This document shows, one piece after another, positions 347 through 24,601 of a stretch of 64,000 nucleotides of DNA. A program made the position numbers and the translations under genes. The notes beneath the pieces are model-generated. The model was given only the letters and a program-made list of their open reading frames with translations. It ran no database searches and was not told the origin of the DNA. The DNA is from an uncultured Christensenella sp. (GTDB lineage Bacteria > Bacillota > Clostridia > Christensenellales > UBA3700). Location of the stretch: the NCBI GenBank assembly GCA_950079155.1, contig CATMWH010000008.1, positions 20,779 through 84,778 of the forward strand, read 5' to 3'. Each line of letters opens with the position of its first letter. Within the stretch, counting starts at the first letter, position 1.

Positions 347-457
347 ATGAACGTTATAAAAATAAACCTTGAGTCTGACAACGAAATATCCGTTGAAGTA
401 CCGCAAGGAACAGTAAATATTGCCGACGTTCTATCGGATGAAAAAACGGAGGCTTAA
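347..457 (+). CDS. hypothetical 36-aa protein
   Basis: ATG at 347 lies 5 nt after AGGAGG (336-341). It translates to MNVIKINLESDNEISVEVPQGTVNIADVLSDEKTEA, and its stop is 4 nt before the next start. It is too short for the ORF track. Confidence 0.3.
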   Translation: MNVIKINLESDNEISVEVPQGTVNIADVLSDEKTEA

Positions 458-461
458 CGAT

Positions 462-3400
462 ATGAGTACAAGAAGTTATATATGCGCTAAGCAACCAGAT
501 GGAACGTATAAAGGGGTATATTGTCATTATGACGGATATCTCGAATACAACGGAGCAATGTTGCTTGATTTTTATCCAACGAAAGAAGATGCAGATAAAA
601 TCTTGCAACTTGGCAGTTTATCAACGTTAAAAGAAAAATTGGAGCCGGATCCGGGAACGGAACACTCGTTTGAAAATAGACAATCAGACGTAACCGTTGC
701 CTATGGCCGAGATAGAGGTGAAACTGACGTTGAGGCAGTAACAGTAGATTTCAAGGAGTTAAATAAGCCAGAAAGTTGGATTGATTATATCTATATTCAC
801 GATGGTGAAAAGTGGAAATATTTTGAGAATGGCAAATTTGACAACGGCTTTAGAGACGTTGACGAGGATCTTCAGCATATTTGGCAGGATCACGGTTTTG
901 ATGAGCGCCACAAAGGCTTCTACGGTGCAGTAACCGATGACGAGTATGATTCAGTTAGAAGGACGTTAGCACAAGAAAAAATAGAAGAGAGGAAGGTGGA
1001 CGAAGCCAAGAAGGAAGAACCGAAGAAAGTAGACAAGAAAGAAACAACGTCGAGTTGGCAAAAAGTTCAAGAGAATAGACAAAAACTCATAGACCAAATT
1101 CGTGCCGAAATATCCAAAGGCAATTTGGAGTGGCATCACTATTTAAGTGGAAAAGCATTACCCCATAACGGTGAGACGTCGAGACCTTATCAAGGTGCTA
1201 ATCGACTTTATTTGGCATTGAGCGCAGCCGTGCAAGGCTTCGATGATCCAAGATGGTATACATTTAATCAAGTCGAGAAAATGGGATTGAAGATTGAAAA
1301 GGGTCAAAAGGGAACACGCATCGAAAAGTTTACCGTGTGGGATAAACTTGCAAAAAAGGAAATCCGCACAAGAAAAGACCTTGACGAGATAACGGCGGGC
1401 TTGAGCGAAGAAGAACGTAAGCAATACGAGAAAGATAACTTGACCGTTTACATAAATCAATACGTTGTATTTAACGGACAACAAGTCAAAGGACTTGAAA
1501 AGTTTGTTGCGCCGACGTTGGATGAGAGCCAAAAAGACGAACGTTGCGAGAGAATATTGGAGCAAAGTTTTGTGCCGATTGAATATTCTCAATCGAGAAC
1601 AACCGCATCGTATGATTTAATCGAAGATAAAATCAATATGCCATTGAGGGATAAATTCATCTCAACGGACGAATTGTACGGCACGGCCTTCCACGAAATG
1701 TCGCACGCGACCGGGGCAAAGACCAGATTAAACCGTAACTTTGAAAACTTTGACGGTTTCGGTTCGGAGTCTTATGCAAGAGAAGAAGTCGTAGCCGAAT
1801 TGAGTTCATTGTTTTTGCAACAGGATTTAGGCGTAGACCTAAAGAGAGCAGCAATCCAGAATAGCGCAGCGTATATCCAAGCGTGGGAAAAAGTATTGGC
1901 AAAGCCAGACGAATTTTTTAGAGCCATTGCCGCAGCGGACAAGGCGTCTAAATATATTATAGAAAATTGCTCTCAAGCGCAAAAACAAGAACAAGAAACT
2001 TCTCAGATTCAAGGCTCCGATAAAGACTTGCATAAGAATACGCTCGTCGTAAATTTCTACGCCGGTCCCGGAGCCGGGAAAACTACGGCCGCACTAGAAG
2101 TTACGGCGGCGCTTAAAAAAGCCGGCTACGACGTAGAGTACGTTCCGGAGTATGCAAAGGAACTTGTAAGAGAAGGAAAGTTGGATATGCTCGACGATCA
2201 AAAAATTGTAATCGACGAGCAGTATAAACGTCTTCATAATATGGCAGTCAGTGGCGTTCAAATAGTAGTCACCGATTCACCGGTGTTACTTGGCCAAGTA
2301 TATGGACAAGGTAAAATCGACGAAGCATACCATAACAAAATACGTGAGTATTACGACAGTTTTGACAACTTTAATCTCCGTGTTGTCCGGGCGGAAGGTC
2401 CGTATCAACAAGAGGGCAGAGTTGAGAACGAAGCGCAAGCCAAAGAACTTGACGATCGTATCAAAGCAATGCTCAAAGAAAACAAAGTTTTCTATGGCAA
2501 TTATCAAAGAGATGAGATAGAGAAGACTGTAGAACGTATCTCGCAAACGTACAATCGTCTGTATGGTGAACACAAAGAAAAAAAAGAAGAAGACACAAAA
2601 GCCTTTAATAGAGATGAACATATAGACGAAGCAGTTGCAGGCTATATGTTGGAGAATCCTAATAAATCTTTACGAGATAGTATGTACGACGTGGTACAAA
2701 TGTCTGACGACACCGTTGAAGAATATGCGGACAAATATCGTGCTGAGAAACAGCCGATAATGGTCCCCAGTCAACTCGAAGGTTGGTCAGATTGGTCAAC
2801 CGAGGAAATAAAAAATAAGGAGGCGAGAGAAGCGGCTGAATGGCTTTTAAAGAACCATTTAGAGAATGAAAAAGACGTTAAGAATGCATTTTATTGTAGG
2901 CAAACGTCATCTATGTCCGACGACCCGAGAGCCGAAGAAAATGACGAACAAACAATCTTAAGAGTGGCTAACTATTACAAAGGCAAAATCGGTGGAGCCC
3001 AAGAGCAAGTTTCAAAGCAGGCAAATCAAACTGAAAAGTCCAATAAAGAAAACCTTTTATCGCCACGTGAATATTACGCACAGAAGAACGCAAAACGTCT
3101 TGATGACCTTAATGCTAACGTTCCTCAAGAGATGAAGGATCTCAAAAATTGGTGCGCTTTCAAAACTTACTATGACGGAGCCACTGGCAAGAAGAAAAAA
3201 ATTATCCTTTCGCCAGAAACGGGCGAGTGGGCGAAATGCAACGAGCCGGCAACGTGGTCAACTTACGAGAAGGCAATGCAGTTCGCAAAGGAGCGGAACT
3301 GTGAAGGACTTAGTTTTGCTTTGGATCTACAAAACCGTATTGCGTGCGTTGACTTAGATCATTGCATTGGAGACAAGGGAATGCGTTCGAATCTTTGTTG

Positions 3401-4034
3401 GAATATTTTGAATGCAGCGCCGAATACTTACGCTGAGAAAAGTGTGTCCGGCAAAGGCGTACACGTATTTTTTAAGGCAGATAACGTCACGCTTGGTTGC
3501 AATATTAAAGACGACGTGAAGGGACTTGAATGTTACGACAGGAGCAAGTTTATATCGATGACCGGCAATGTCATAAGTAAGACCACCGCCATCGAAGACA
3601 AGCCACAAAAACTCATAGACCTTGTACGTGAGGAATTGGGACCAAGTCAACGTAGCGAAACGTCGGATAATCAAACAGTACGAAAATCAAGCGGCACGCC
3701 GTTTATGTTTGATTCTGAAGTTGTTGAGGCAATAAAGAGAAGTAAAGCAGGCCCCGACTTTGAAAGATTGTATCGAGGCGAGGATCTTTGCGGAGATAAA
3801 TCTAAGAGCGATGCCAAGTTAATGAGTATGCTTGCGTTCTTTACCGATTGCAATCCAAGTCAGATGAAATCTATATTTGAATCGTCCGGCTTGTATCGAG
3901 AAAGCAAGGGCGAGAAGTACGTAGATCGTACAATTGATTTTGCTATAAGGTCGTTAAAGACCCGTCCTTCGAATTTGGGGAAAAGCAATACAAAGCAGCA
4001 ACAAAAGGCAAGTGGCAGTCAAAAAACAAAATAA
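462..4034 (+). CDS. multidomain conjugative-element protein: N-terminal unknown domain, ArdC-like ssDNA-binding N-domain, HExxH zincin, P-loop NTPase, AEP-type primase-polymerase with PriCT-like C-terminus
   Basis: The likely start is ATG 462 after GGAGG (449-453); the track ORF starts at TTG 420. Motifs: ArdC-N-like RPYQGANRLYL...RWYTFNQV; HEMSH (1692-1706); Walker A GPGAGKTT (2064-2087); AEP motifs VDLDHC (about 3347-3364) and GKGVHVFF (3450-3473). The C-terminal tail is K/Q/S-rich. Confidence 0.85.
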   Translation: MSTRSYICAKQPDGTYKGVYCHYDGYLEYNGAMLLDFYPTKEDADKILQLGSLSTLKEKLEPDPGTEHSFENRQSDVTVAYGRDRGETDVEAVTVDFKELNKPESWIDYIYIHDGEKWKYFENGKFDNGFRDVDEDLQHIWQDHGFDERHKGFYGAVTDDEYDSVRRTLAQEKIEERKVDEAKKEEPKKVDKKETTSSWQKVQENRQKLIDQIRAEISKGNLEWHHYLSGKALPHNGETSRPYQGANRLYLALSAAVQGFDDPRWYTFNQVEKMGLKIEKGQKGTRIEKFTVWDKLAKKEIRTRKDLDEITAGLSEEERKQYEKDNLTVYINQYVVFNGQQVKGLEKFVAPTLDESQKDERCERILEQSFVPIEYSQSRTTASYDLIEDKINMPLRDKFISTDELYGTAFHEMSHATGAKTRLNRNFENFDGFGSESYAREEVVAELSSLFLQQDLGVDLKRAAIQNSAAYIQAWEKVLAKPDEFFRAIAAADKASKYIIENCSQAQKQEQETSQIQGSDKDLHKNTLVVNFYAGPGAGKTTAALEVTAALKKAGYDVEYVPEYAKELVREGKLDMLDDQKIVIDEQYKRLHNMAVSGVQIVVTDSPVLLGQVYGQGKIDEAYHNKIREYYDSFDNFNLRVVRAEGPYQQEGRVENEAQAKELDDRIKAMLKENKVFYGNYQRDEIEKTVERISQTYNRLYGEHKEKKEEDTKAFNRDEHIDEAVAGYMLENPNKSLRDSMYDVVQMSDDTVEEYADKYRAEKQPIMVPSQLEGWSDWSTEEIKNKEAREAAEWLLKNHLENEKDVKNAFYCRQTSSMSDDPRAEENDEQTILRVANYYKGKIGGAQEQVSKQANQTEKSNKENLLSPREYYAQKNAKRLDDLNANVPQEMKDLKNWCAFKTYYDGATGKKKKIILSPETGEWAKCNEPATWSTYEKAMQFAKERNCEGLSFALDLQNRIACVDLDHCIGDKGMRSNLCWNILNAAPNTYAEKSVSGKGVHVFFKADNVTLGCNIKDDVKGLECYDRSKFISMTGNVISKTTAIEDKPQKLIDLVREELGPSQRSETSDNQTVRKSSGTPFMFDSEVVEAIKRSKAGPDFERLYRGEDLCGDKSKSDAKLMSMLAFFTDCNPSQMKSIFESSGLYRESKGEKYVDRTIDFAIRSLKTRPSNLGKSNTKQQQKASGSQKTK

Positions 4035-4609: not shown

Positions 4610-5059
4610 ATGGAAAATAGGACTGTCCAAAAGCGAATTAGAATTTACGAAGAAAGTCTTTGGCAGTATATAGACAAACTGCTTAGGGTAGAGCCTTTCG
4701 ATGGAAATTTTAACGAAGTGATAAATCAAGCATTAAAAATTGGACTTCCAAGGCTTTACGAATTGACGTTCGACCCGAAGGAATACTACAAGCGGTTAAG
4801 CCAAGAAGAAGTCGAAACCGAGGTAACTAGGGAAATAAAAGATTTGTCTTTAACTGTTGACGAGGTGAGTGTCCAAGTTGGAATCATAAAATATTTGCTC
4901 TCGATTTTATTCAACATAGAGGGACACAAACTAGAGGGCAAGGTCTTGACCGTGGATATGCTTGAGAGCGGAATATTCGCCTCGTTACCAAAGAACTTGC
5001 AAGAGATTGAAAACACGATGATAGAGAACACAAGGAAAAATAGGAGTAGTAAGAAATGA
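4610..5059 (+). CDS. putative relaxosome accessory protein (RHH-like N-terminus)
   Basis: ATG 4610 lies 8 nt after GGGAG. The N-terminus KRIRIYEESLWQYIDKLL looks like an RHH strand-helix. The stop overlaps the relaxase start (ATGA at 5056). Confidence 0.45.
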   Translation: MENRTVQKRIRIYEESLWQYIDKLLRVEPFDGNFNEVINQALKIGLPRLYELTFDPKEYYKRLSQEEVETEVTREIKDLSLTVDEVSVQVGIIKYLLSILFNIEGHKLEGKVLTVDMLESGIFASLPKNLQEIENTMIENTRKNRSSKK

Positions 5060-6336
5060 GCGTAGTTTTTAATATATCATACACACCAGCACAACCGAAG
5101 AAAAATGCGACGGAGTTCCAGGCGGTAGAGTGGAAGAACGAAAGGGCTTTTTATGACCTATCGGCTGACTATAACTACGTTACCTATTCTCTCAATGGTC
5201 AAAAGACGGCAAAACACAAGGATTATTTGGACTATATGGAGAAGGATACTGGGGCGTTTAATCTTGATAGACCGTTGACGCCAGAGAACGTTAAGGATAT
5301 CAAAGAACGTCTCAAGAAGTCGAAGTCGATAATTTGGCACGGTTTTATATCTTTTGACAAAGAGACAAGCGCTGCATTTACTACGCCGGAACAAGCACGT
5401 AAATTTTTAAAACAAACGATGGGCGCTTTGTTCGAAAATTCGCATCTTGACAAAGACAACATAGAAATAATGGCGAGTTTGCACGTTGACCGTTCCCATC
5501 ATCACCATATACACTTTGAGTTTTGGGAAAAGGATCCAAAGCGTCTTGATAAGAAGAACGGTGAGAAAAAATTCACGCAAAAGGGGTGTTTTAATCAAAG
5601 GTGCATAGATAATTACTTGATAGCGTCAAGTTTGGCGCTCGAGGACAACAAGAATGATTTTCACATTGCTCGAGACAATGCATTGGCAAGGCTCAAGGAA
5701 CTTATGCCACAGCATAAGAATAAGCAAAGTGAAATTGGCGCTAAATTGGCAGAAGTTGCAAGCATTTTGCCACGTAGCGGAAGGCTTGGATATAATAGCG
5801 ATAATATGTCAGCCTTGAGAGAGCAGGTAGACAAGGCAGTAGATTATATAGTTGCTAGAGACGATAAATTGAAACAATTTGTACGTGAAACGTATGGAGA
5901 GATAATAAAGAGAGAGAATCGAGCGCAAGAATTGGCGAAAGCAAACAAGATACTTTGGACTCAAGGTGGAAGATTTAAGCCAGAGGAAATCGAAGGCAAG
6001 TTGACTGAAGAGCAAATGAAGAAGTTTGCATTGAGTAATAAATTTGCTTGCGTAGATAAACTGCGTCCAGAGTTTAGGGCAAGGCTTGGACAGATTGTAA
6101 TAAACGCTGCAAAATGGATTAAAGAGAAGAAAGTAGCAAATGCGAAGAATTGCCGAAACGCTGGCAAGAATGCTATGAGAATTGCCGCTAGAAGAGATGC
6201 AATGATGATAAAGCGAGATGTCAAAAAATTCATTTATGGACTTGAGCAAACGCTGTGTAATATCCGTACTGATTTTACACCGTTGTTGCATCAAGCAGAA
6301 TTTGAGATAGCGCAATCACAAAGAAAATACAAATAG
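5056..6336 (+). CDS. putative conjugative relaxase (His-triad nuclease type)
   Basis: His cluster LHVDRSHHHHIHFEFWE resembles the HxDxxxHxHxH metal site of MOBP/MOBQ-type relaxases. It sits next to the repeat-rich gap and upstream of the coupling protein. The family assignment was not verified. Confidence 0.6.
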   Translation: MSVVFNISYTPAQPKKNATEFQAVEWKNERAFYDLSADYNYVTYSLNGQKTAKHKDYLDYMEKDTGAFNLDRPLTPENVKDIKERLKKSKSIIWHGFISFDKETSAAFTTPEQARKFLKQTMGALFENSHLDKDNIEIMASLHVDRSHHHHIHFEFWEKDPKRLDKKNGEKKFTQKGCFNQRCIDNYLIASSLALEDNKNDFHIARDNALARLKELMPQHKNKQSEIGAKLAEVASILPRSGRLGYNSDNMSALREQVDKAVDYIVARDDKLKQFVRETYGEIIKRENRAQELAKANKILWTQGGRFKPEEIEGKLTEEQMKKFALSNKFACVDKLRPEFRARLGQIVINAAKWIKEKKVANAKNCRNAGKNAMRIAARRDAMMIKRDVKKFIYGLEQTLCNIRTDFTPLLHQAEFEIAQSQRKYK

Positions 6337-6554: not shown

Positions 6555-8693
6555 ATGAAGAATGTAAATTGGAAATTTAAATTGACTTTTGCGGCAGTCC
6601 TTGGAACAATGGTAGCCGTTATTGTCGGGGTCATAATGACCTTAATAAGGTTTAAAGGAAAGATTTCTATGCAAGCGTATTTTTCGACGCTCGGCAAAGG
6701 AAGTTATTGGCTTTTGTTGTTTGTAGTATTTGTTGCTATTGGAACTTGGTTTTTGGCGGAGCACCGCATAAGAGCCGATAAAGATGTTGTGAAAGATAAC
6801 GAAGGCGAAACCAGTGAACTTATGAGCATTAGTGATATAAAGAAAAGTAAGGATTTTGTTGTCGCAGATTTTTCCGATCTTCCAAATATCAAGGATGGGA
6901 TTGTGCTACAAGCTAGAAAGGCTAAAAATAATATAAAGGTTGTTATGTCGAGCAAGCCTAATCACGTTCTAGTAATAGGAACAACCGGTGCAGGTAAGAC
7001 GCAAGGCTTTATAAATCCTACGATTCAAGTATTGATGCAGACAAAGACAAAACCGTCAGTCGTCATTACTGATCCAAAAGGAGAGTTGTTTGATACACAC
7101 GCTGCAGCATTTCTACAAAAAGGCTATAAGGTTTTGGAGTTAGACTTGGATCAACCATATTATTCAAGCAAGTGGAATCCGTTTGACGTGCTTAGGGAGA
7201 GAATAGATAAAATCAATAAATTAAACGTTGACGGAGATTCAGAAGAAACGAAGGTCAAAATTCAAATTTTGCGTGATGAAATATACGAGTTGGCAAAAGA
7301 CTTGACGGATGCAATCTGTCCGCTTGAGAAATCTTCAGATATGGGATGGCAGTTAGGCGCTAGGTCTTTAGTCAACGCTATTGTCCTTGCATTGTGTGAA
7401 GACTATGAGGATGGATTGTTTGAGAGCAAGCAATTTGGCTTTGCGACATTGTATCACATAGTATTTGATTATCTTTCTGCGGATGACACTGTGTTGAAAG
7501 ATTACTTATATGAGAGTAGAGATCTAAACTCAAAAGTTAAGGGATTGGCGAAACAAGTATTGGAGACACAAGAAAAGACTTTGACAAGTTATCTATCTGA
7601 AGTATATAAGCACGTTGAATGGTTGAGTGACTCTGGCATTTTGTCAATGACATCAGGCTCAGATATAGATTTATATTCAATGGACGAGCAACCAACAGCG
7701 CTATTCTTAAAAATACCGGACGAGAAGAAAACTCGACATAGACTTGTAACGCTTTTGATCACTCAAATGTACAAGACTCTTGTAGATAAGACCAAGCGCA
7801 ATAAGGCGAGTGGTGAGACTGAAGAATTGGAGTTGAAGAGGACAGTATATTTCTTGTTGGACGAATTTGGCAATTTGCCGGCATTTAATGACCTTGCCGG
7901 AATGATTACTGTCGGTCGTAGTAGAAGGATGTTCTTTGAGATGGTAGTACAGAATTATGCGCAGTTGGCAAATAAATACGGCAAAGAAGTAGCAGATATA
8001 GTCAAGTCGCAGTGTGGTACTAAAATCTTTCTTGGCTCTGACGATGCCAATACTATCAATGAGTTTAGTTCAATTTGCGGTAAAAAGATTGTCGCGAATT
8101 CTAATATTACAACGTCGTATCAGCAAAATTCGGCGTCGACAGGCACAGGCGTAAAAGAAATACCGCTTATTTATCCAACGGAATTAAAAAATCTTAATTC
8201 AGGAGATAGTTTTGGTAACGCAGTCGTTTTGCCGTTTGGGCATTTTGCGTTCAAGAGTAAATATACACCGTCGTATCAGTGTTCAAAAATTTATATAATG
8301 AAAGCGCCACCGCAGAGTTTAAAGCAAGCGCACTATTATGATGAGATGGATCACGTCTTTGACATCACAAGCAAAATAGCAAGAGACAATGCTATTCGTG
8401 AAGAGATGAAGAAAATGGAAGATGAGTTGAGGGCAATGCAAGAACAGCAACAAGCCAAGAAACCTAGCGCGATGTCGTCAGCAAACAAGTCCGACATTTT
8501 GCTTGAGCAGGTCAATGTGTTAAAGCAATTCTTGCCGGAAGAGATGGCGGACTTTGAGACATTGGATTTGGACACTCAATTGGCAAAATTAGCTGAATTA
8601 AAAAGTAAGGCAGGGAGTATGGAATTGATTTTTAAAATAACTGATTTAGAAATAAGACTTAAAAATAGTGAGGTGAAGACAAATGACAAATAG
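6555..8693 (+). CDS. type IV coupling protein (VirD4/TraG family)
   Basis: N-terminal TM segments, Walker A VIGTTGAGKTQG and Walker B-like VYFLLDEFGNLP. Size and architecture are typical of T4CPs. Confidence 0.9.
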   Translation: MKNVNWKFKLTFAAVLGTMVAVIVGVIMTLIRFKGKISMQAYFSTLGKGSYWLLLFVVFVAIGTWFLAEHRIRADKDVVKDNEGETSELMSISDIKKSKDFVVADFSDLPNIKDGIVLQARKAKNNIKVVMSSKPNHVLVIGTTGAGKTQGFINPTIQVLMQTKTKPSVVITDPKGELFDTHAAAFLQKGYKVLELDLDQPYYSSKWNPFDVLRERIDKINKLNVDGDSEETKVKIQILRDEIYELAKDLTDAICPLEKSSDMGWQLGARSLVNAIVLALCEDYEDGLFESKQFGFATLYHIVFDYLSADDTVLKDYLYESRDLNSKVKGLAKQVLETQEKTLTSYLSEVYKHVEWLSDSGILSMTSGSDIDLYSMDEQPTALFLKIPDEKKTRHRLVTLLITQMYKTLVDKTKRNKASGETEELELKRTVYFLLDEFGNLPAFNDLAGMITVGRSRRMFFEMVVQNYAQLANKYGKEVADIVKSQCGTKIFLGSDDANTINEFSSICGKKIVANSNITTSYQQNSASTGTGVKEIPLIYPTELKNLNSGDSFGNAVVLPFGHFAFKSKYTPSYQCSKIYIMKAPPQSLKQAHYYDEMDHVFDITSKIARDNAIREEMKKMEDELRAMQEQQQAKKPSAMSSANKSDILLEQVNVLKQFLPEEMADFETLDLDTQLAKLAELKSKAGSMELIFKITDLEIRLKNSEVKTNDK

Positions 8694-17263: not shown

Positions 17264-20098
17264 ATGTTGAAATACATACCTAAAAAGACAAAGATAAAAA
17301 GTACGATATGGAAATCATATTCATTAAAAGACGTGCTTATAGTAGGTATAATGTTTGCAGTTGTAGTTGCGTTGTTAATGAGCAATTTAAAAGGTAAGTG
17401 GTTTATAGGGATAGGAACGGCAATCGTTTGTATGTTTGTAATGTTGCCATCGTCTAAGGATACTTTAATATATGAAGAAATATTAAATCTTATAAAGTAT
17501 ATTTTTAGTAAAAAAAAGTACGTTGGCGCGCAAGTGGACAAACTAGTACCATATATGGGCTTTGAAGAAGATGGAACTATTAGATACCCAGACTATTACG
17601 GACGAGTTATCCGTATAGGCTGTAAGACGTTTGCGCTTGAGACTGAGTATGCGCAAGAGAGAGATATAGAGAGCCTTGCTAAAGCGCTTTCTTGTCTTGA
17701 TACAGGCAAGGTAATGGATATTGTAAAGATAGATAGACCAATAATATTTGATAGTTATATAAAAGAACTAGAAGATAAGTTGAGTTTACTTGGCAAATCA
17801 AGAACCAAGGCAACTAGAATTCGACGTGCAATACTTGAATCAAGAATTGCTCAACTCAAATATATGAACTCACAGGATCCTGTATATAAGTCCGAATACT
17901 ATATCGTGATCTATGACGGAATACTCAAAGAACTCAATCGCGTTGCAGATCAAATAAGCGCATATTTGAGGGGAGCAGAGTTGGATTGCGAAATATTGAA
18001 CAATGCTAAAGACGTTGCTATCTTTTTAAAATATTGCAATGTGCGCAACTTCGATGAGCGCGAGTCAGAAGGCAAGACACCTCAAGAGTTGCTTGCTTGG
18101 GTAAAACCGACTGAAATTAAATTCCATAGTAGCGGATATACGATAAATGGTGTAAAGGCATTTAATTATGCGATCGCTGATTATCCGTTGACTGTTGATG
18201 CGGCGTGGGGCGCTGAGTTGTTTGATATGGATAAGACTAAGGTTGTAATGCACCTTGTTCCTGTGGATCAGAACAAGGCAATATCAAGAGTGGATAAGGT
18301 TTGTCGAGAACTTTTAGCAAGAGAAGAAGCATACAAGGCTAGTGAGGTTCTTGAGCAAGAAACTCACTTAGATAGTATGTCTGCGCTGTTGACGTCGTTG
18401 CAGAATGGCGGAGAAAACCTTTACGACGTAACTACCGTCGTGACAGGCTTTTGCTATGAAGACAACGAAAGAGCCTTTAAGAAAAGTATCAATAGCCGTA
18501 TCCGAGTACGTGGCTTTTCTACAGATAATTTATACGTTCGTCAATTGAACGGATTTGTGACGTCGAATATCTCAAGACGTTCGTCGTTGAGGAATATAGA
18601 GCGTGGCATCAATGGCGGAAGTATCGCATCTGTTTTTCCATTTGTGCATACAACTATGCTAGAGTCAGGTGGCGTACTTTACGGCACCGGCGCATACCCA
18701 GTCATTTGGAATATGTGGAAGAAAGATGGCACGCACCGTAACGCAAATACGATTATATTCGGTCGTCCTGGTTCAGGTAAAAGTTATTTCTTGAAATCAC
18801 TTTTGTCGCAATCACTTGGAGACGGTTGTTTATGTTTTATCATAGATCCGGAGAATGAGTATGGAGATCTTGTCCGCAACGTAGGCGGAGAAATGATTGA
18901 CGTTGGATCGGCAAGCAAAGGTTGTCTAAATCCGTTCCATATCTATCAGATATTGACAGAAGATGGCAATGTTGCGCCGCCGAGCCAAGTCTACTATTCG
19001 CATCTAAAGACGCTTGAAAGTTTCTTTAAAGTCATACTCGAAGGCTGTGATGCAGATACTCTTGAGTTAATAAACAATGTCGTCAATGACGTTTATGAAG
19101 CAAAAGGAATTAAGCCTGAAACTGATGTGTCTCAATATACTGCTGAGCAATTTCCGGTTTTTGATGATTTGTTTACAATGTTGACACAAAAAGAACAAGA
19201 CCAAATTAGTGATAAAGTAATCGATACTTACATAAAGGCTCAAAACTATGTCAAGAAGTTTACCACAGGCGGACGATACAGTGACCTTTGGGGCAAGCCA
19301 TCTACGTTGACGTCTGATAACGTAATGACGGTATTCAACTTCCAAAGCCTTTTTGCCAACAAGAATAACCTTGTTGCAAATGCTCAAATGCTTTTGGTAT
19401 TTAGATTTTTGGAGCAACAAGTAATCAATATAAGAGAGAAAAATCGTAGCGCGAAGAAACCGCATAGAATTGTAATCGTTGCTGACGAGGCTCACTTGTT
19501 TATTGATCCAAAATATCCTATAGCAGTTGATTTCTTCTACCAAATGACTAAACGTATTCGTAAATATGACGGAACGTTTATTCCGGCAACTCAAAACGTC
19601 GCAGACTGGTTGGCAAATGATGAACTTAAATCCAAGACGTCGGCTGTAATAAAAAATACGCAATACACGTTCGTATTTGCGCTTAATCCGTCCGACGTAG
19701 AGGATTTAGCGGAGTTATACAAAAATAATCCTATCAATGAAGAAGAGCAGAATCTAATAATATCTGCAGGTATGGGAGATTGCTTCTATATTGGTGCGTA
19801 CAATGAAAGATTTACGTTTAGCATAGTCACAAACGAACTTGTCGAGGCAGTATTTAGTGATAAGAATTTTGTGCGTAATTGGCTTGATAAAAAGGTCATA
19901 GCGCAAAACGGCAACGGCGCAACTGCACAAGAGGCAGAGAACGCCGACGCCGAGACGCCTCAAGAAGAAGTGCCGCAAAATGTAGATGTGCAGCCACAAA
20001 ACGTGGAGGCACAACCGCAAGGTGCAGAAGATAATCAACAATCACAAGAACGAGAATATGAGGAGGGAAACGACAATGAGAGTAATAGGATTGGTTAA
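17264..20098 (+). CDS. VirB4/TraE/TrsE-family conjugation ATPase with N-terminal TM (VirB3-like) segment
   Basis: Walker A FGRPGSGKSYF and Walker B RIVIVADEAHLF in a 944-aa protein. The C-terminus is a low-complexity P/Q/E tail. Confidence 0.9.
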   Translation: MLKYIPKKTKIKSTIWKSYSLKDVLIVGIMFAVVVALLMSNLKGKWFIGIGTAIVCMFVMLPSSKDTLIYEEILNLIKYIFSKKKYVGAQVDKLVPYMGFEEDGTIRYPDYYGRVIRIGCKTFALETEYAQERDIESLAKALSCLDTGKVMDIVKIDRPIIFDSYIKELEDKLSLLGKSRTKATRIRRAILESRIAQLKYMNSQDPVYKSEYYIVIYDGILKELNRVADQISAYLRGAELDCEILNNAKDVAIFLKYCNVRNFDERESEGKTPQELLAWVKPTEIKFHSSGYTINGVKAFNYAIADYPLTVDAAWGAELFDMDKTKVVMHLVPVDQNKAISRVDKVCRELLAREEAYKASEVLEQETHLDSMSALLTSLQNGGENLYDVTTVVTGFCYEDNERAFKKSINSRIRVRGFSTDNLYVRQLNGFVTSNISRRSSLRNIERGINGGSIASVFPFVHTTMLESGGVLYGTGAYPVIWNMWKKDGTHRNANTIIFGRPGSGKSYFLKSLLSQSLGDGCLCFIIDPENEYGDLVRNVGGEMIDVGSASKGCLNPFHIYQILTEDGNVAPPSQVYYSHLKTLESFFKVILEGCDADTLELINNVVNDVYEAKGIKPETDVSQYTAEQFPVFDDLFTMLTQKEQDQISDKVIDTYIKAQNYVKKFTTGGRYSDLWGKPSTLTSDNVMTVFNFQSLFANKNNLVANAQMLLVFRFLEQQVINIREKNRSAKKPHRIVIVADEAHLFIDPKYPIAVDFFYQMTKRIRKYDGTFIPATQNVADWLANDELKSKTSAVIKNTQYTFVFALNPSDVEDLAELYKNNPINEEEQNLIISAGMGDCFYIGAYNERFTFSIVTNELVEAVFSDKNFVRNWLDKKVIAQNGNGATAQEAENADAETPQEEVPQNVDVQPQNVEAQPQGAEDNQQSQEREYEEGNDNESNRIG

Positions 20099-20855
20099 TC
20101 AAAAAGGCGGAGTGGCAAAGACCACTACCGCCAGCGCCCTAGCGTATGGTTTGGCGCGAAACGGCAAAAGGACACTTTTAGTGGACTTTGACCCACAAGG
20201 CAATTTGACAGTTGCGTGCGGCATTGTTACCAATGAAGGTAATCCACCAGCGCTTAAATTGATAGATTTAAAGACAAGCGCTGAGATTGAGAATTTAGAG
20301 CCGGGTTTGGACTTTGTTGCGTCTGGTATTGGTCTCGAGACCGCGAATATGATACTTGCCGGTAAGCCGTGCCGGGAATTGTATCTCAAGCGAGCACTCA
20401 AGAAGTTTGAAAACGAATACGACTACGTAGTCATTGATAGCAATCCGTCTTTGTCAATTATAACGTTGAACGTGCTTTCGGCTTGTGATGAGATAATCGT
20501 GCCTTTCAAGCCGGAATTTAATTCAGAGAAAGGTGTAAATCTCTTGATTGAGACTGTTGAAGAGATTCGCCAAATCAATGAGAATTTAAGAATTAGAGGA
20601 TTTCTTGTGACAATGGCGGATCGTCGTCGACGTTCAACAAATGAGAGCGTAGAGTATGTCAAGGAGCAAGCGCAAGGTTGCCAAAGTAAAGTCTACACGA
20701 GTTGGATCCGTCAATCGGTCGTTGCTGCAGATGCGCCAAAAATCGGCAAGAGTGTCTATGACTACCGCCCGGGCAGTCCGCTTGTTGCAGACTATGAGGC
20801 GTTCGTTCAAGAATTTTTAAAGGAGGAAGAAGATGCAGACACAAGAAAAAAATAG
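20076..20855 (+). CDS. parA: ParA/Soj-family partition ATPase
   Basis: ATG 20076 follows GAGGAGGG. Deviant Walker A in MRVIGLVNQKGGVAKTTTA, then LVDFDPQGN. The track ORF start at 19986 lies inside the VirB4 gene. Confidence 0.9.
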   Translation: MRVIGLVNQKGGVAKTTTASALAYGLARNGKRTLLVDFDPQGNLTVACGIVTNEGNPPALKLIDLKTSAEIENLEPGLDFVASGIGLETANMILAGKPCRELYLKRALKKFENEYDYVVIDSNPSLSIITLNVLSACDEIIVPFKPEFNSEKGVNLLIETVEEIRQINENLRIRGFLVTMADRRRRSTNESVEYVKEQAQGCQSKVYTSWIRQSVVAADAPKIGKSVYDYRPGSPLVADYEAFVQEFLKEEEDADTRKK

Positions 20856-21051: not shown

Positions 21052-21072
21052 GTAAAGACAATTTGTCTTTAC
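21052..21072. repeat. GTAAAGAC motif pair 3 (inverted; perfect 10+1+10 palindrome)
   Basis: GTAAAGACAA-T-TTGTCTTTAC starts immediately after the RHH gene stop codon. Confidence 0.9.
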
Positions 21073-21106
21073 AAATGTAAAATCATAGTTATTTTGTTAA
21101 AACGTA

Positions 21107-21135
21107 TTGACAAGATAAATAGATAGGCGTATAAT
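21107..21135 (+). promoter_or_regulatory. sigma-70-type promoter
   Basis: TTGACA (21107-21112), 17 nt, TATAAT (21130-21135). Confidence 0.7.
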
Positions 21136-21141
21136 AACAAT

Positions 21142-21264
21142 ATACAAGTCAGCGATGCCCCGCTAGAGAGGGCCTTTGATAATCGGTGATGCCCAACCAA
21201 CTTAATAGGGCCTAGACTTGTAGAGTACAGACGCCATAAAACAGATGCCGTCTGTTTTTATTTT
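21142..21264 (+). ncRNA. candidate structured small RNA / leader (ToxI-like position)
   Basis: It lies between a consensus promoter and a hairpin plus T-run (21227-21264). Closing stem TACAAGTC/GACTTGTA (21143-21150 / 21215-21222). Two degenerate units each carry GATGCCC (21154, 21188) and AGGGCCT (21169, 21207). Confidence 0.35.
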
Positions 21265-21278
21265 AGGAGAACTTTAAG

Positions 21279-22124
21279 ATGAAAGAAAAAATGAATATAT
21301 ATTATCTTGATAAGGCATATCAAGATTACATAAAACCGCAGACAAGAAACAGTCAAGCAGCAGAAAAAGAAGAAAGCAAAAGACGCACGTCGGGAGTGGT
21401 GTTGTTTGGCTTTGGCGGAACAAAGAACTATTTTGTGCCATTGAGAGTTGGCGAACAGGAACAGAAGAAGTCTGAAATGGGATTGACGCACGGTCTCAAT
21501 AAAGGCAAGAATGGTTATCTAGATTTTAGTGAGATGGTTCCGGTACAAAATAAAGATCTTCAATTGTTGGACATTTCTAACTTGCCAACGTGCAATCTCA
21601 AGAGGAACTTGCAACGACAAGCAAGGTATATACAGAGAGAACAAAAGAAGATAATGGAATGCGCAGCGGAAGTATACTTGAATTGCGTCCATTATCCAGA
21701 GAGTAAGATTGCATCAGAATGTAACGACATTCTTATGCTCGAAGAGAAAGAACGCTTGTGGAGAGAAGGAAAAGTCCAAAAGGTCGAGAAAAAAGTGGTA
21801 AAGCCAGCCGAAGAAAAAAAGACTGAAGAACCGGCGGACAAGCCAACGAAAAAGACTTACAAAGAGACAAACACCTATAAATTAGCCGTAGAAAAATACG
21901 GACAAAAAGTAGCGGATAAGATGATCGCTGACGCTCTTAAGCAAGCGATGACACAAGAGAAAGAAGACAAGAAGACGGAGAAAAAACAAACTACATCAAC
22001 TTCATCGACAAGCAAAAAGACAGTAAAGAAAGTAGTTGCATCGTCTTCAAAGAAATCGACGTCGGCTGAAAAAGGAATGGTTACAACCGTAACAATCCAA
22101 AGTTCGCCTGCAAAAGGAAAGTAA
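21279..22124 (+). CDS. ToxN/AbiQ-like domain protein with K/E/S/T-rich C-terminal extension
   Basis: The N-terminal ~165 aa follow the ToxN/AbiQ pattern as I recall it: IYYLDKAYQDYI; SGVVLFGFGGTKNYFVPL; GYLDFSEMVPV...LQLLDISNLP; LKRNLQRQARYIQ; CNDILMLEEKERLW. The family PL[ST]SPK motif reads PLRVGE here. Confidence 0.6.
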   Translation: MKEKMNIYYLDKAYQDYIKPQTRNSQAAEKEESKRRTSGVVLFGFGGTKNYFVPLRVGEQEQKKSEMGLTHGLNKGKNGYLDFSEMVPVQNKDLQLLDISNLPTCNLKRNLQRQARYIQREQKKIMECAAEVYLNCVHYPESKIASECNDILMLEEKERLWREGKVQKVEKKVVKPAEEKKTEEPADKPTKKTYKETNTYKLAVEKYGQKVADKMIADALKQAMTQEKEDKKTEKKQTTSTSSTSKKTVKKVVASSSKKSTSAEKGMVTTVTIQSSPAKGK

Positions 22125-22128
22125 ATAT

Positions 22129-22149
22129 GTAAAGACGATTTGTCTTTAC
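22129..22149. repeat. GTAAAGAC motif pair 4 (inverted)
   Basis: GTAAAGAC-GATTT-GTCTTTAC starts 4 nt after the stop of the ToxN-like gene. Confidence 0.9.
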
Positions 22150-22183
22150 AAACAAAATAAATCATATAGAATTGGAGAAAAAT

Positions 22184-22519
22184 ATGCAAAAAATGCTAAT
22201 TCAATTAGATGTAGAAAAAATTGAGAGAGATAATAAGTACGACATTAAAGATATGTGGAAAGCCATAGATGAGATCTTTGCTAAACAAAAATGTGTAAAA
22301 GAAGTCAATGAAGACGGCTCGGCAATGTATTTGGGTAATCCAAATACTGATAATTATTTGGCAGACTTTGGAATAGCTTATATTACATTAAAGTCTAGTT
22401 CTTGGTTTCTTGAGTATGCATTAAAATGGATATGGTATGATAACGATGAAGATGAAAATGGCTCCTTTGAAGAAAGTGACACTCTATATAGAGTTAAGAA
22501 AAAATTAGGAATGATTTAG
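22184..22519 (+). CDS. hypothetical acidic protein
   Basis: ATG 22184 follows GGAG. 111 aa with no motif I recognise. It sits directly upstream of the VapD-like gene. Confidence 0.6.
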   Translation: MQKMLIQLDVEKIERDNKYDIKDMWKAIDEIFAKQKCVKEVNEDGSAMYLGNPNTDNYLADFGIAYITLKSSSWFLEYALKWIWYDNDEDENGSFEESDTLYRVKKKLGMI

Positions 22520-22531
22520 GCGAATTTTATT

Positions 22532-23077
22532 ATGGAAAAGGGAAAGATAAAAGCATTAAATTTTGATTTAGATACAAATGTTATGAAATCATTAGGAGTG
22601 TATCCAGATGGATATAGACAATTAGGCAAGGCTCTTCACGAGGCAGGTTTTTTGCATAGACAAGGCTCTGGATATGTATCAAAGGGAAAACTTCTGAACG
22701 ATGACGTCAATGATATAGTTGAGAGTTTAACAGTAAAAAATCCGTGGCTGGTTAAATGTGTAAACAAGTTAGACGTTACAGACGTTGGAAAACAACACGA
22801 CTTAACAAAAGTAGTTCTTGCAGCATTGTCATCAAAAGCAGGTGTAAAACTCAAAGAAAAAGATGATAACTCTTTAGTTCAACAGTACAAGCAAACTTCT
22901 GCGTATAAATCTAACGTTGAGAAGTTCGGACAGAAAACCGCAGATAAGATGCTTGCCGAGTCAATTAAGAATTTGACAGCACAAGAGAAAAAAGGAAGAT
23001 GGACGTCGCCTAAAAAACAAACAATTAAAGCCCCTCAAGGCAAAACGGAGAAGAATAATTCTGGAAAAGGAAAGTGA
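22532..23077 (+). CDS. VapD-like (Cas2-superfamily) protein with K-rich C-terminal extension
   Basis: KALNFDLDT...GYRQLGKALHEAGFLHRQGSGY...NPWLVKCVNKLDVTDVGKQHDLT parallels VapD (YAIAFDL...AYTDIGAVLAKFGFVRTQGSLY...), recalled from memory. The C-terminal module is shared with the 21279 gene. Confidence 0.65.
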   Translation: MEKGKIKALNFDLDTNVMKSLGVYPDGYRQLGKALHEAGFLHRQGSGYVSKGKLLNDDVNDIVESLTVKNPWLVKCVNKLDVTDVGKQHDLTKVVLAALSSKAGVKLKEKDDNSLVQQYKQTSAYKSNVEKFGQKTADKMLAESIKNLTAQEKKGRWTSPKKQTIKAPQGKTEKNNSGKGK

Positions 23078-23236: not shown

Positions 23237-24601
23237 TTGAATACACAAGAAAAATTAAAAGATTTAGTAGAGCAATGCGTAAGTTCAATCATTTCAATGT
23301 TTAGCGAGGCGATAAGCAAAGGCTCGTTTACATTGGCCGTACAAGAGACAAAATCTTTGACGGACAATCTAGGTGTCAATATTTTAGAAACACTATGTAG
23401 AAAAGCCGACAAGATTTATAATGACACTCGAGATAAGCATCAAGTGACGATAAAGGATAAATCCAAGACAAGACATCTAATAACAGAGTTAGGAGAAGTT
23501 ACGCTTGAGCGCATTTGTTATTTTGACAAACGAAGTGGCAAGCGCTTTTTTGCTGTTGACGAAATGTTGGGACTAGAGAAGCGCAGTCGAGTTGAGCAAG
23601 GATTGCAAGCCAAACTTATTGAGCAGGCTACGCTTACGAGTTTTGGAAAGTCTAGTGCAGCGGTAAATAATGCAGTATCTCGACAGACCGTTTATAATCT
23701 CACAAAGAAGTTGAAGACAATAGAGGCCAAAATGCCTGCAGAACGTCGGGATGTCAGCGATATTTATATTGAGGCAGACGAGGATCATATCCATCTGCAG
23801 AACGGTAAGAGCGCCGAAGTCAAGTTGGTCTATGTCCACGATGGGGTAAAGACGATTTGTAAAGACAGAACGCAACTTCAAAATGTTCGATACTTCGTAT
23901 CGGTTGATGACGACCCTGACAAGATATGGAACGACGTTGCGCATTATGTTTATCGGAAGTATTCTATGCTCAATGCTAAGGCGCATATATCTGGTGACGG
24001 TGCGTATTGGATTAAATATGGTCAACATATTTTTCACAAAGCGCAGTATCACATAGACAAATTCCATATTCAAAAATCCGCAACGGCCGTTGCAAAGGGC
24101 AATCGACAAGTACGTAGCAAAATATTGGCCGCAATGAGAAAGAGAGATTACAAAAGTCTGAAGACGGTTTTTCAAGAACAGTATCTCAAGTATACTGAGC
24201 GTACGGAACGTCGCACCATCGCAGAGCAATATTTTTATTTGCTAAATAATATGGAGACGTACGGAATCAAAAACCGGTGCAGCGCAGAGGGGCACGTCTC
24301 TCACGTTCTGTCTGATCGTATGAGTTCTCGGCCAATGGGTTGGTCAAGGGCTGGAGCAGAGCAAATGGCGAAGCTTCGCGCATTTTACTTTAATGGCGGC
24401 AATTTCTTAGATTTAATCCGATATGGAAAAATAGCAGAGGATGATATGCAAGAAATTTATACGACTAGATACAATTCGCACGTCAACGCTGTCAAACTTG
24501 GCGTCGCGCCAACACCAGCAAAAGTATACTCAGTAGCCAGCATTGCGGGGCAAAATACACGAATTTCAAAGCTTTTACGCAGTTTAATAAAAATAAAATA
24601 A
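23237..24601 (+). CDS. DDE transposase, ISLre2/UPF0236-like
   Basis: TTG start after GGGAG. Motifs IYIEADEDHIHLQ, GDGAYWIK and HIDKFHIQK match the ISLre2/UPF0236 pattern as I recall it. 454 aa. Confidence 0.75.
   Translation: MNTQEKLKDLVEQCVSSIISMFSEAISKGSFTLAVQETKSLTDNLGVNILETLCRKADKIYNDTRDKHQVTIKDKSKTRHLITELGEVTLERICYFDKRSGKRFFAVDEMLGLEKRSRVEQGLQAKLIEQATLTSFGKSSAAVNNAVSRQTVYNLTKKLKTIEAKMPAERRDVSDIYIEADEDHIHLQNGKSAEVKLVYVHDGVKTICKDRTQLQNVRYFVSVDDDPDKIWNDVAHYVYRKYSMLNAKAHISGDGAYWIKYGQHIFHKAQYHIDKFHIQKSATAVAKGNRQVRSKILAAMRKRDYKSLKTVFQEQYLKYTERTERRTIAEQYFYLLNNMETYGIKNRCSAEGHVSHVLSDRMSSRPMGWSRAGAEQMAKLRAFYFNGGNFLDLIRYGKIAEDDMQEIYTTRYNSHVNAVKLGVAPTPAKVYSVASIAGQNTRISKLLRSLIKIK
23846..23868 (+). 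repeat. GTAAAGAC motif pair 6 (direct, inside the transposase ORF)
   Basis: GTAAAGACGATTTGTAAAGACAG is the exact reverse complement of 23079-23101. Confidence 0.9.

Follow-up and report, generated by a model that had tools for sequence, protein, structure and literature searches.

A two-unit structured RNA and a ToxN-like protein with a remodelled catalytic loop form a candidate type III-derived module in conjugative elements of gut Clostridia

Results

Layout of the locus

We analysed a 64-kb stretch of DNA from an uncultured Christensenella sp. (contig CATMWH010000008.1), hereafter the window; all coordinates are window positions. It contains a locus laid out like type III toxin-antitoxin systems of the ToxIN/AbiQ type, in which a promoter, a non-coding leader RNA and an intrinsic terminator are followed by the open reading frame (ORF) of a ToxN-like protein (Table 1). 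A first-pass annotation, made from the DNA letters, had proposed this order together with the promoter and the terminator, and the arrangement proved complete, with every part lying within 1–2 nucleotides (nt) of the place assigned to it.

The sigma-70 promoter matches the consensus at 12 of 12 positions and predicts a transcription start at about 21142–21143. The terminator is an inverted repeat with 11-nt arms and one mismatch, followed by TTTTTATTTT, so that the T-run reaches 21264; it folds with −11.4 kcal/mol (z = −3.6). The internal mismatch in its stem hid it from a simple terminator scan. Under the definition of type III loci given by Blower et al. 2012 (PMC3401426), where a −35/−10 promoter is preferred and not strictly demanded, both the promoter and a terminator palindrome ahead of the toxin gene (21227–21255 plus the U-run) are in place. 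The homologous loci tell the same story: the promoter upstream of the leader is conserved and consensus-like in each of them, a terminator hairpin with a U-run stands at the equivalent place with an unrelated sequence, the ribosome-binding site is kept and the ORF is intact throughout. In what follows, the window clade comprises the window protein and P0001–P0004 (69–98% identical), and the sister clade comprises P0005–P0007 (43–45% identical).

A further pairing was noticed and set aside. The promoter spacer contains GGCGT (21126–21130), complementary to ACGCC in the 5′ arm of the terminator (21231–21235), and the two have changed jointly to GGTGT/ACACC in the sister clade. This apparent covariation amounts to one evolutionary event and is absent from locus L014, so we made no use of it. 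The spacer would be transcribed only if a weaker upstream promoter-like site (21068–21095) fires.

Table 1. Features of the locus and its surroundings in the window
Feature	Position	Strand	Description or evidence
Sigma-70 consensus promoter	21107..21135	+	TTGACA-17-TATAAT
Structured non-coding RNA, ~80 nt	21143..21222	+	Fold, covariation, conservation
Closing stem P1	21143/4–21150 pairs 21215–21221/2	+	7–8 pairs, encloses both units
Unit 1	21151–21173	+	Hairpin AGCG/CGCU; loop GCCC able to pair with downstream GGGC
Inter-unit linker	21174–21184	+	
Unit 2	21185–21211	+	Hairpin GGU/ACC; again GCCC...GGGC
Intrinsic terminator	21227..21264	+	Arms 21227–21237 / 21245–21255 and U-run; inverted-repeat scan, fold
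Ribosome-binding site AGGAG	21265..21269	+	Sequence; 9 nt ahead of ATG
ToxN-like ORF, 281 amino acids (aa)	21279..22124	+	ORF list, Pfam
ToxN/AbiQ-fold domain, aa 1–165	21279..21773	+	Pfam, PADLOC, PDB, Foldseek, dN/dS
Remodelled catalytic loop P54-L-R-V-G-E-Q60	21438..21458	+	Replaces family P-L-[ST]-S-P-K-x
C-terminal tail, aa 166–281 and stop	21774..22124	+	Conserved, K/S/T-rich
Tail helical module YKxTxxYKxAVEKYGQKVADKM	21846–21965	+	pLDDT ~72–75
Conserved end of tail EKGxVTTVTIxSSPAKGK	22068–22121	+	
VapD-like ORF (Cas2-fold nuclease family)	22532..23077	+	NCBIfam VapD; C-terminus from ~22886 is the tail module
21-bp palindrome, copy 1, GTAAAGACAATTTGTCTTTAC	21052..21072	.	Directly after RHH stop; overlaps −35-like TTTACA
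21-bp palindrome, copy 2, GTAAAGACGATTTGTCTTTAC	22129..22149	.	Directly after stop of toxN-like gene; overlaps −35 of promoter-like site 22145–22172
1204-aa multidomain ORF	420–4034		ArdC N-terminal, zincin-like metallopeptidase, AAA and NrS-1-type primase helix-bundle domains
MobL relaxase	5056–6336		Downstream of 1204-aa ORF
Coupling protein	6555–8693		Downstream of 1204-aa ORF

The leader is a folded RNA with two units

Two copies of a core, GATGCCC(N5-20)AGGGC, lie in the leader (21154–21173 and 21188–21211) and nowhere else in the window, where 0.02 would be expected by chance; their GATGCCC segments start 34 nt apart and their GGGC segments 38 nt apart. The minimum free energy (MFE) of the leader is −37.8 kcal/mol (z = −3.8). 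We compared it with homologous leaders from the fetched loci, eight distinct sequences in all that represent three or four clades, and each of them contains the two units and the closing stem. In a fold that combines the closing stem P1, one hairpin per unit and one GCCC/GGGC pairing per unit, 96–98% of the alignment cells pair. Compensatory changes affect six pairs: three of the seven in P1, one in the hairpin of unit 1 (AGCG/CGCU to AGUG/CACU) and two in that of unit 2 (GGU/ACC to GGC/GCC to AGC/GCU). The fold has a covariation score of 0.24–0.28, compared with 0.10–0.11 in shuffled alignments (none of 500 reached the observed value), and displacing the partners by one to three columns brings the score to about zero. 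Several G·U pairs of the fold fit the plus strand only. Coming from three or four clades, these covariation counts are indicative and do not amount to proof.

The GCCC/GGGC helices can form in all leaders but are invariant, save for one change from G-C to G-U. The MFE structure offers instead a long-range helix joining two GGGCC segments, which we rejected: five of its seven pairs break in the sister clade and none covaries, whereas the pairing within each unit is kept in all sequences. A coding role for the leader was likewise discarded, since its only ATGs open frames of 3 and 8 codons that lack a ribosome-binding site; the leaders of L006 and L007 do not have these ATGs (GCTGCCC). In Rfam 15 no family covers the stretch 21143–21264, and the four weak matches (all E > 3) fall outside it or on the opposite strand.

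Selection on the leader is apparent when it is set against the four-fold degenerate sites of the adjoining gene: identities are 96 versus 80% and about 70 versus 40–55%, with 87% versus 48% for L004 and 65% versus 33% for L014. The units also evolve together: ahead of UGCCC they share the same base, either A or C, and behind GGGC they share the same flank, CU in the window clade and GAUG in the sister clade. Recognition of both units by a single partner would lead to such a pattern, and so would gene conversion between the two.

The first-pass annotation had described the closing stem and the two units with their 34–38-nt spacing, all of which we recovered, and the comparison of fold and covariation across homologs that it called for yielded a conserved, structured RNA with compensatory changes. 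It had also called the units poorly conserved; this holds when they are compared with each other, but between homologs they are strongly conserved as parts of one folded RNA. Speaking of two units is thus correct and speaking of an array is not, because Tandem Repeats Finder (TRF) reports nothing in the leader: where the type III definition has a TRF-detectable tandem array, there are here two diverged units that share the core GATGCCC...AGGGC.

A ToxN-fold protein with a remodelled catalytic loop

The likeness to ToxN/AbiQ that had been proposed for the first ~165 aa was borne out by both routes suggested for checking it, profile search and structural superposition. Pfam ToxN_toxin (PF13958) matches aa 5–159 with 74.2 bits over profile positions 1–157 of 159, well above its curated gathering score of 25 bits, and the AbiQ model of PADLOC scores 58 bits. 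In the PDB, the sequence matches P. atrosepticum ToxN with E = 1e-5, and at E ≤ 0.01 the matches are exclusively ToxN-family chains, none of them CptN. Foldseek placed the AlphaFold2 (AF2) model, whose N-terminal domain has a predicted local distance difference test (pLDDT) of 70–87, with ToxN (7d8o, 2xd0, 4ato) and AbiQ (4glk) at template-modelling (TM) scores of 0.71–0.75 and probability 1.0. The window protein is a remote member of the ToxN family; typical ToxN proteins reach 145–180 bits on the same Pfam model, against 74 here. Within the window clade, the ratio of nonsynonymous to synonymous substitution rates (dN/dS) of the ToxN domain is 0.05–0.17, with dS up to saturation, and this strong purifying selection indicates that the gene is not decaying.

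The active site of ToxN comprises Tyr29, Lys33, Thr52, Ser53 and Lys55 (PMC5086642, PMC8860590). Toxicity is abolished by K33A, by T52V or by substitution of Lys55 (K55A) (PMC5086642, PMC8860590), and S51L abolishes the RNase activity of AbiQ (PMC5086642). In a pairwise alignment, APLTSPKK of ToxN faces VPLRVGEQ, so that Thr52, Ser53, Pro54 and Lys55 correspond to R56, V57, G58 and E59. Of the catalytic residues Lys33, Thr52, Ser53 and Lys55, the first is kept as R35 and the other three are replaced. How unusual is this? An exhaustive search of 1.84 billion protein representatives with the profile of the subfamily gave 863 matches from the ToxN family, and in the best ~145, which we aligned, almost all read [FY][FY][AV]-P-L-[ST]-S-P-K-x-K-H; the Ser hardly varies and Lys55 is almost as constant. 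The altered motif noted in the first pass, PLRVGE for PL(S/T)SPK, is thus real and unusual among these representatives. In place of [ST]-S-P-K-x-K-H, the window protein reads R-V-G-E-Q-E-Q and its whole clade P-L-R-[VI]-G-[EG]-x-E-Q. The loop of the sister clade retains T-S (T-S-[AS]-[ED]-R), and that of P0009 reads T-N-D-A-R. Spacing to the invariant NKGKNG block is identical, which means that the loop was changed by substitution in place, with no insertion or deletion. By these alignments, the loop is remodelled across the subfamily and completely so in the window clade.

The linker between the RNA units differs between the same clades. Units are spaced by 34 nt in the window clade and by 57–58 nt in the sister and P0009 clades, which have the T-S or T-N loop; there, the linker carries a 24-nt insert, able to form a hairpin in L014, and the A-rich stretch UGAAAAAGG immediately ahead of unit 2, a stretch replaced by UGAUAAUCGG in the window clade. 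ToxN-type enzymes cleave A-rich single strands such as GAAAU (PMC8860590), and the joint loss of the T-S motif and of the A-run in the window clade is suggestive, although it amounts to one event.

A C-terminal tail shared with a VapD-like neighbour

The extension of about 115 aa rich in K, E, S and T that had been remarked upon at the C-terminus is real and conserved: all subfamily members carry it, P0009 included. In this tail, a K/S/T-rich linker joins a helical module to the conserved end. The same helical module, again with a basic KGK terminus, closes the VapD-like ORF, which is the next but one after the toxN-like gene and whose N-terminal 90 residues match NCBIfam VapD with 85.4 bits (E = 2.6e-24), under the curated cutoff of 100 bits. 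Regular-expression and hidden Markov model searches of all six frames found the module in the window only in these two ORFs.

In the sister clade the helix module also occurs alone, as an ORF of 51–53 aa (MDTYKQTVEKYGKKGAEKMIDDAVKE...; L006 392–553, L007 2630–2785) between the RHH (ribbon-helix-helix) gene and the leader promoter. Because it can stand free, we regard the module as a mobile unit and not as a mere linker. At permissive thresholds, Pfam holds no family for the tail or for the tail fragment of the VapD-like protein (P0156), and PHROG has none for the tail or for the whole VapD-like ORF; a Pfam search with the whole VapD-like ORF likewise left the module without a match. Word-indexed and tail-profile searches found the tail only in this gene family, in the VapD-like ORF of the window and in the two standalone ORFs, and a literature search turned up no paper about tailed ToxN proteins of this kind carried by conjugative elements.

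Between the toxN-like and VapD-like genes lies an ORF of 115 aa (22172–22519) without a family match. It may form, to judge from the gene order, a VapXD-like type II pair with the VapD-like ORF. The arrangement is also seen in L001 and L004 and is missing from L009.

Relatives and rarity

The subfamily is rare. Seven clusters (P0001–P0007) were found among 5.8 billion proteins, and with P0008, a frameshifted fragment, and P0009 the total over two protein libraries is nine clusters or representatives. Among 185,579 species genomes we found three loci, in two Clostridia metagenome-assembled genomes (MAGs) and one uncultured Christensenellaceae MAG, and all members come from Clostridia in gut or animal metagenome assemblies. 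JGI metagenome contigs gave no subfamily locus either by protein or by RNA pattern, IMG/VR gave nothing with the RNA pattern, and among PLSDB plasmids the only matches were generic ToxN/AbiQ genes with 34% identity.

Just outside the subfamily, classic repeats stand where the two-unit RNA stands here. The locus of the next relative, P0010 (114 bits, loop P-I-T-S-A-S-K-K-Y), has a TTGACT-17-TATACT promoter, 2.9 tandem repeats of 28 nt (TRF score 92) and then a terminator followed by the gene; P0012, with a canonical S-P-K loop, has 2.0 perfect 37-nt repeats. Since it occupies the place of the ToxI-type array of these relatives, the window RNA is most plausibly a two-unit derivative of such an array.

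Another member of the ToxN family, P0011 (atypical loop P-I-T-T-Q-H-D; L018 1239–1500), is preceded by a TTGACA-17-TATAAT promoter, a GC-rich leader of about 110 nt closed by a UAACCAA/UUGGUUA stem and devoid of TRF-detectable repeats, and a terminator. A stop codon breaks up the N-terminus of the P0011 ORF. Leaders without repeats may be commoner among divergent ToxN loci.

Element context

Upstream genes encode a giant ArdC-N/zincin/primase-like protein, the MobL relaxase, the coupling protein, a VirB4-like ATPase, ParA and an RHH protein. The order VirB4-like, ParA, RHH, leader and toxN-like is identical in every relative found, and this conserved synteny makes the module look like part of the element backbone rather than variable cargo. 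This refines the earlier proposal of cargo on a conjugative element.

A 21-bp palindrome, GTAAAGACNATTTGTCTTTAC, brackets the whole module. Its two copies, the only ones in the window (0 expected by chance), belong to a 34-nt direct repeat that is 88% identical. Judging from its position, it could be an operator or a centromere-like site of the adjoining ParA/RHH pair. The palindrome is present in most relatives; L006 and L007 have a small ORF in its stead.

As mechanically called (19986–20855, 289 aa), the ParA ORF begins before the VirB4-like gene has ended. Its start is probably an internal Met near 20076 (MRVIGLVNQKGG...), since homologs are called at 259–261 aa. On the other side, the block is followed in most relatives by a UPF0236 transposase-like gene (23237–24601 in the window). 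Farther out the gene content varies (L001–L003 beyond ~4900): L002 has an iron-containing alcohol dehydrogenase gene, and L003 has DUF4420/AIPR abortive-infection-like genes. It seems that the conserved element stops near the UPF0236 gene or holds a variable region there.

Discussion

By profile and by fold the protein belongs to the ToxN family; two hallmarks of working type III systems, the set of ToxN catalytic residues and a TRF-detectable array, were looked for and are absent from the locus. The layout, the fold, the placing of the RNA where relatives have canonical arrays and the concerted change of its units lead us to read the locus as a type III-derived RNA-protein pair. With somewhat more confidence than doubt, a judgement that takes in the mechanism outlined below, we propose that a type III system of the ToxIN/AbiQ type gave rise to this divergent module, now fixed in the backbone of conjugative elements of gut Clostridia. 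From its sequence it would probably represent a rare type III variant in which the RNA stays unprocessed and the RNase chemistry is non-canonical or lost.

A model of how such a module might work can be drawn as follows. The consensus promoter would produce an abundant RNA of ~80 nt, stopped at the terminator, and read-through would give a little ToxN-fold protein; the layout is observed, and the ratio between RNA and protein is assumed by analogy with ToxIN. This RNA would consist of two diverged ToxI-like units, each with a hairpin and an H-type GCCC/GGGC pseudoknot, tied together by the closing stem. The stem and both unit hairpins are shown by covariation, and the pseudoknots are only consistent with the data. 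Each unit would then bind one ToxN-like protomer, a stoichiometry suggested by the concerted evolution of the units and by the ToxIN and CptIN structures, so that a single uncut RNA would hold two proteins in a closed complex and keep them in check. Two further features might set the window clade apart: i) its protein would no longer cut its own RNA, or other RNA, by ToxN chemistry, since the loop now reads R-[VI]-G-[EG]-x-E-Q and the A-rich linker is gone, which makes a loss of cleavage most likely; and ii) the RNA-bound protein might have its output, or its localisation, through the tail that it shares with the VapD-like protein.

Several observations weigh against this proposal. The GCCC/GGGC helices are invariant and hence without support from covariation; TRF detects no repeat in the leader even at a minimum score of 30; and the AF2 model is moderate overall, with a mean pLDDT of 63. 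The equivalents of Lys33 (R35) and Gln117 (Q114) are kept, the only two to be so among the residues with which E. coli ToxN holds its RNA. R56, or the NKGKNG loop that is invariant in the subfamily, could provide a replacement chemistry. The loss of catalysis, most likely as we take it to be, is read from alignments alone, and the joint loss of T-S and of the A-rich linker counts as a single evolutionary event, because the eight RNAs represent three or four clades.

The main rival is a fully functional type III system that acts in the canonical way. The protein would then be a toxic endoribonuclease with substitute residues (R56, K75/K77 of NKGKNG, R35) that cuts the leader between the units, and the pieces would neutralise it, the system serving to stabilise the element after segregation or to abort phage infection. 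Arginine takes part in catalysis in the related MazF/Kid-fold RNases; the type III layout is complete, from promoter through RNA and terminator to toxin gene; R35 and Q114 are retained; and protein and RNA are both under strong purifying selection. ToxIN is moreover known to act both in abortive infection and in plasmid maintenance (PMC5086642). We nevertheless consider such a system rather unlikely: the near-invariant Ser53, and Lys55 which comes close to it, are replaced by V/I and E/G, one substitution is enough to inactivate ToxN (T52V or K55A) or AbiQ (S51L), the window clade lacks the A-rich linker typical of ToxN-type cut sites, and the closing stem would keep the two halves together after a cut. 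Going to the other extreme, the ToxN-like protein of the clade might be a catalytically silent RNA-binding domain and no toxin at all, forming a stable particle with one uncut RNA of two units, with the tail as an adaptor to the conjugation or partition machinery, where it could be a transfer signal for type IV secretion or a tether to the element DNA. We rate this as improbable.

Could the leader act only in cis, as an attenuator or riboswitch that controls terminator read-through, with no antitoxin acting in trans? A promoter, an aptamer-like domain closed by P1, a terminator and a gene are the standard layout of a riboswitch, and the GCCC/GGGC core is invariant in the manner of a ligand pocket. 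We give this explanation little credence, because the RNA has no Rfam match and is found only with this ToxN subfamily, the 3′ strand of P1 is clear of the terminator stem with no antiterminator pairing evident, at this position relatives carry tandem repeats of the classic ToxI kind, and the two units evolve in concert as if one protein read both. Less credible still, to the point of being very hard to uphold, is a decaying type III remnant with an inactivated toxin, eroding repeats and no present function. The lost catalytic motif, the divergence of the repeats beyond the reach of TRF and the frameshifted P0008 would suit it, but the low dN/dS across a window clade whose dS saturates, a leader conserved far above synonymous sites with compensatory changes, and ORFs that are intact everywhere behind maintained promoters, ribosome-binding sites and terminators all contradict erosion.

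To our knowledge, every characterised type III system consists of an active endoribonuclease and an array of near-identical RNA repeats, which are cut into units by the toxin itself. The module described here departs from that norm in its stem-closed RNA of two units, in a remodelled loop under purifying selection and in a tail shared with an unrelated neighbour of nuclease fold. Should the protein be inactive, it would be the first natural ToxN-family member that we know of to be kept for RNA binding and not for cleavage, an illustration of how systems of this type can be put to new use; should it be active, the family would have an alternative catalytic solution combined with a 'single-chain' antitoxin. 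Why might loci of this kind escape attention? Screens based on TRF (Blower et al. 2012) discard them, and the diversity of type III systems is thus probably undercounted. The practical importance of the family is limited for now, given its rarity and its confinement to Clostridia of gut and animal metagenomes.

Comparison with known systems

The closest parallel is ToxIN (P. atrosepticum pECA1039, E. coli and B. thuringiensis; 2xd0, 7d8o, 4ato), which has the same Pfam family, fold and gene order, RNA units able to form small pseudoknots, and a Lys33 whose position is kept here as Arg. ToxI consists of 2–5.5 near-identical tandem repeats of 34–37 nt that ToxN cuts into units, whereas the window RNA has two diverged units, locked by a stem and invisible to TRF; the protein differs from ToxN by R, V and E in the places of Thr52, Ser53 and Lys55, and by the added 115-aa tail. 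AbiQ/antiQ of Lactococcus lactis (4glk), a Firmicute abortive-infection system of type III and of the same family (Foldseek TM 0.71), is similar in having few RNA repeats (2.8 in antiQ) followed by a terminator. The repeats of antiQ are nearly identical to one another, AbiQ lacks a C-terminal tail, and it relies on Ser51, whereas the equivalent region of the window protein is without Ser or Thr.

CptIN of Eubacterium rectale (4rmo) is likewise a type III system of gut Clostridia, and its closed assembly of two RNAs and two proteins has the stoichiometry proposed here for a two-unit RNA with two proteins. It belongs to another sequence family, the window protein giving only a weak fold match to it (TM 0.33, E = 8.5e-3), and CptI repeats are tandem and processed, unlike the two-unit leader. 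Lastly, the VapD-like ORF recalls the type II system VapXD, since it matches the VapD model and is preceded by a small ORF as in vapXD; it differs in scoring under the curated cutoff and in ending with the module that it shares with the ToxN-like protein.

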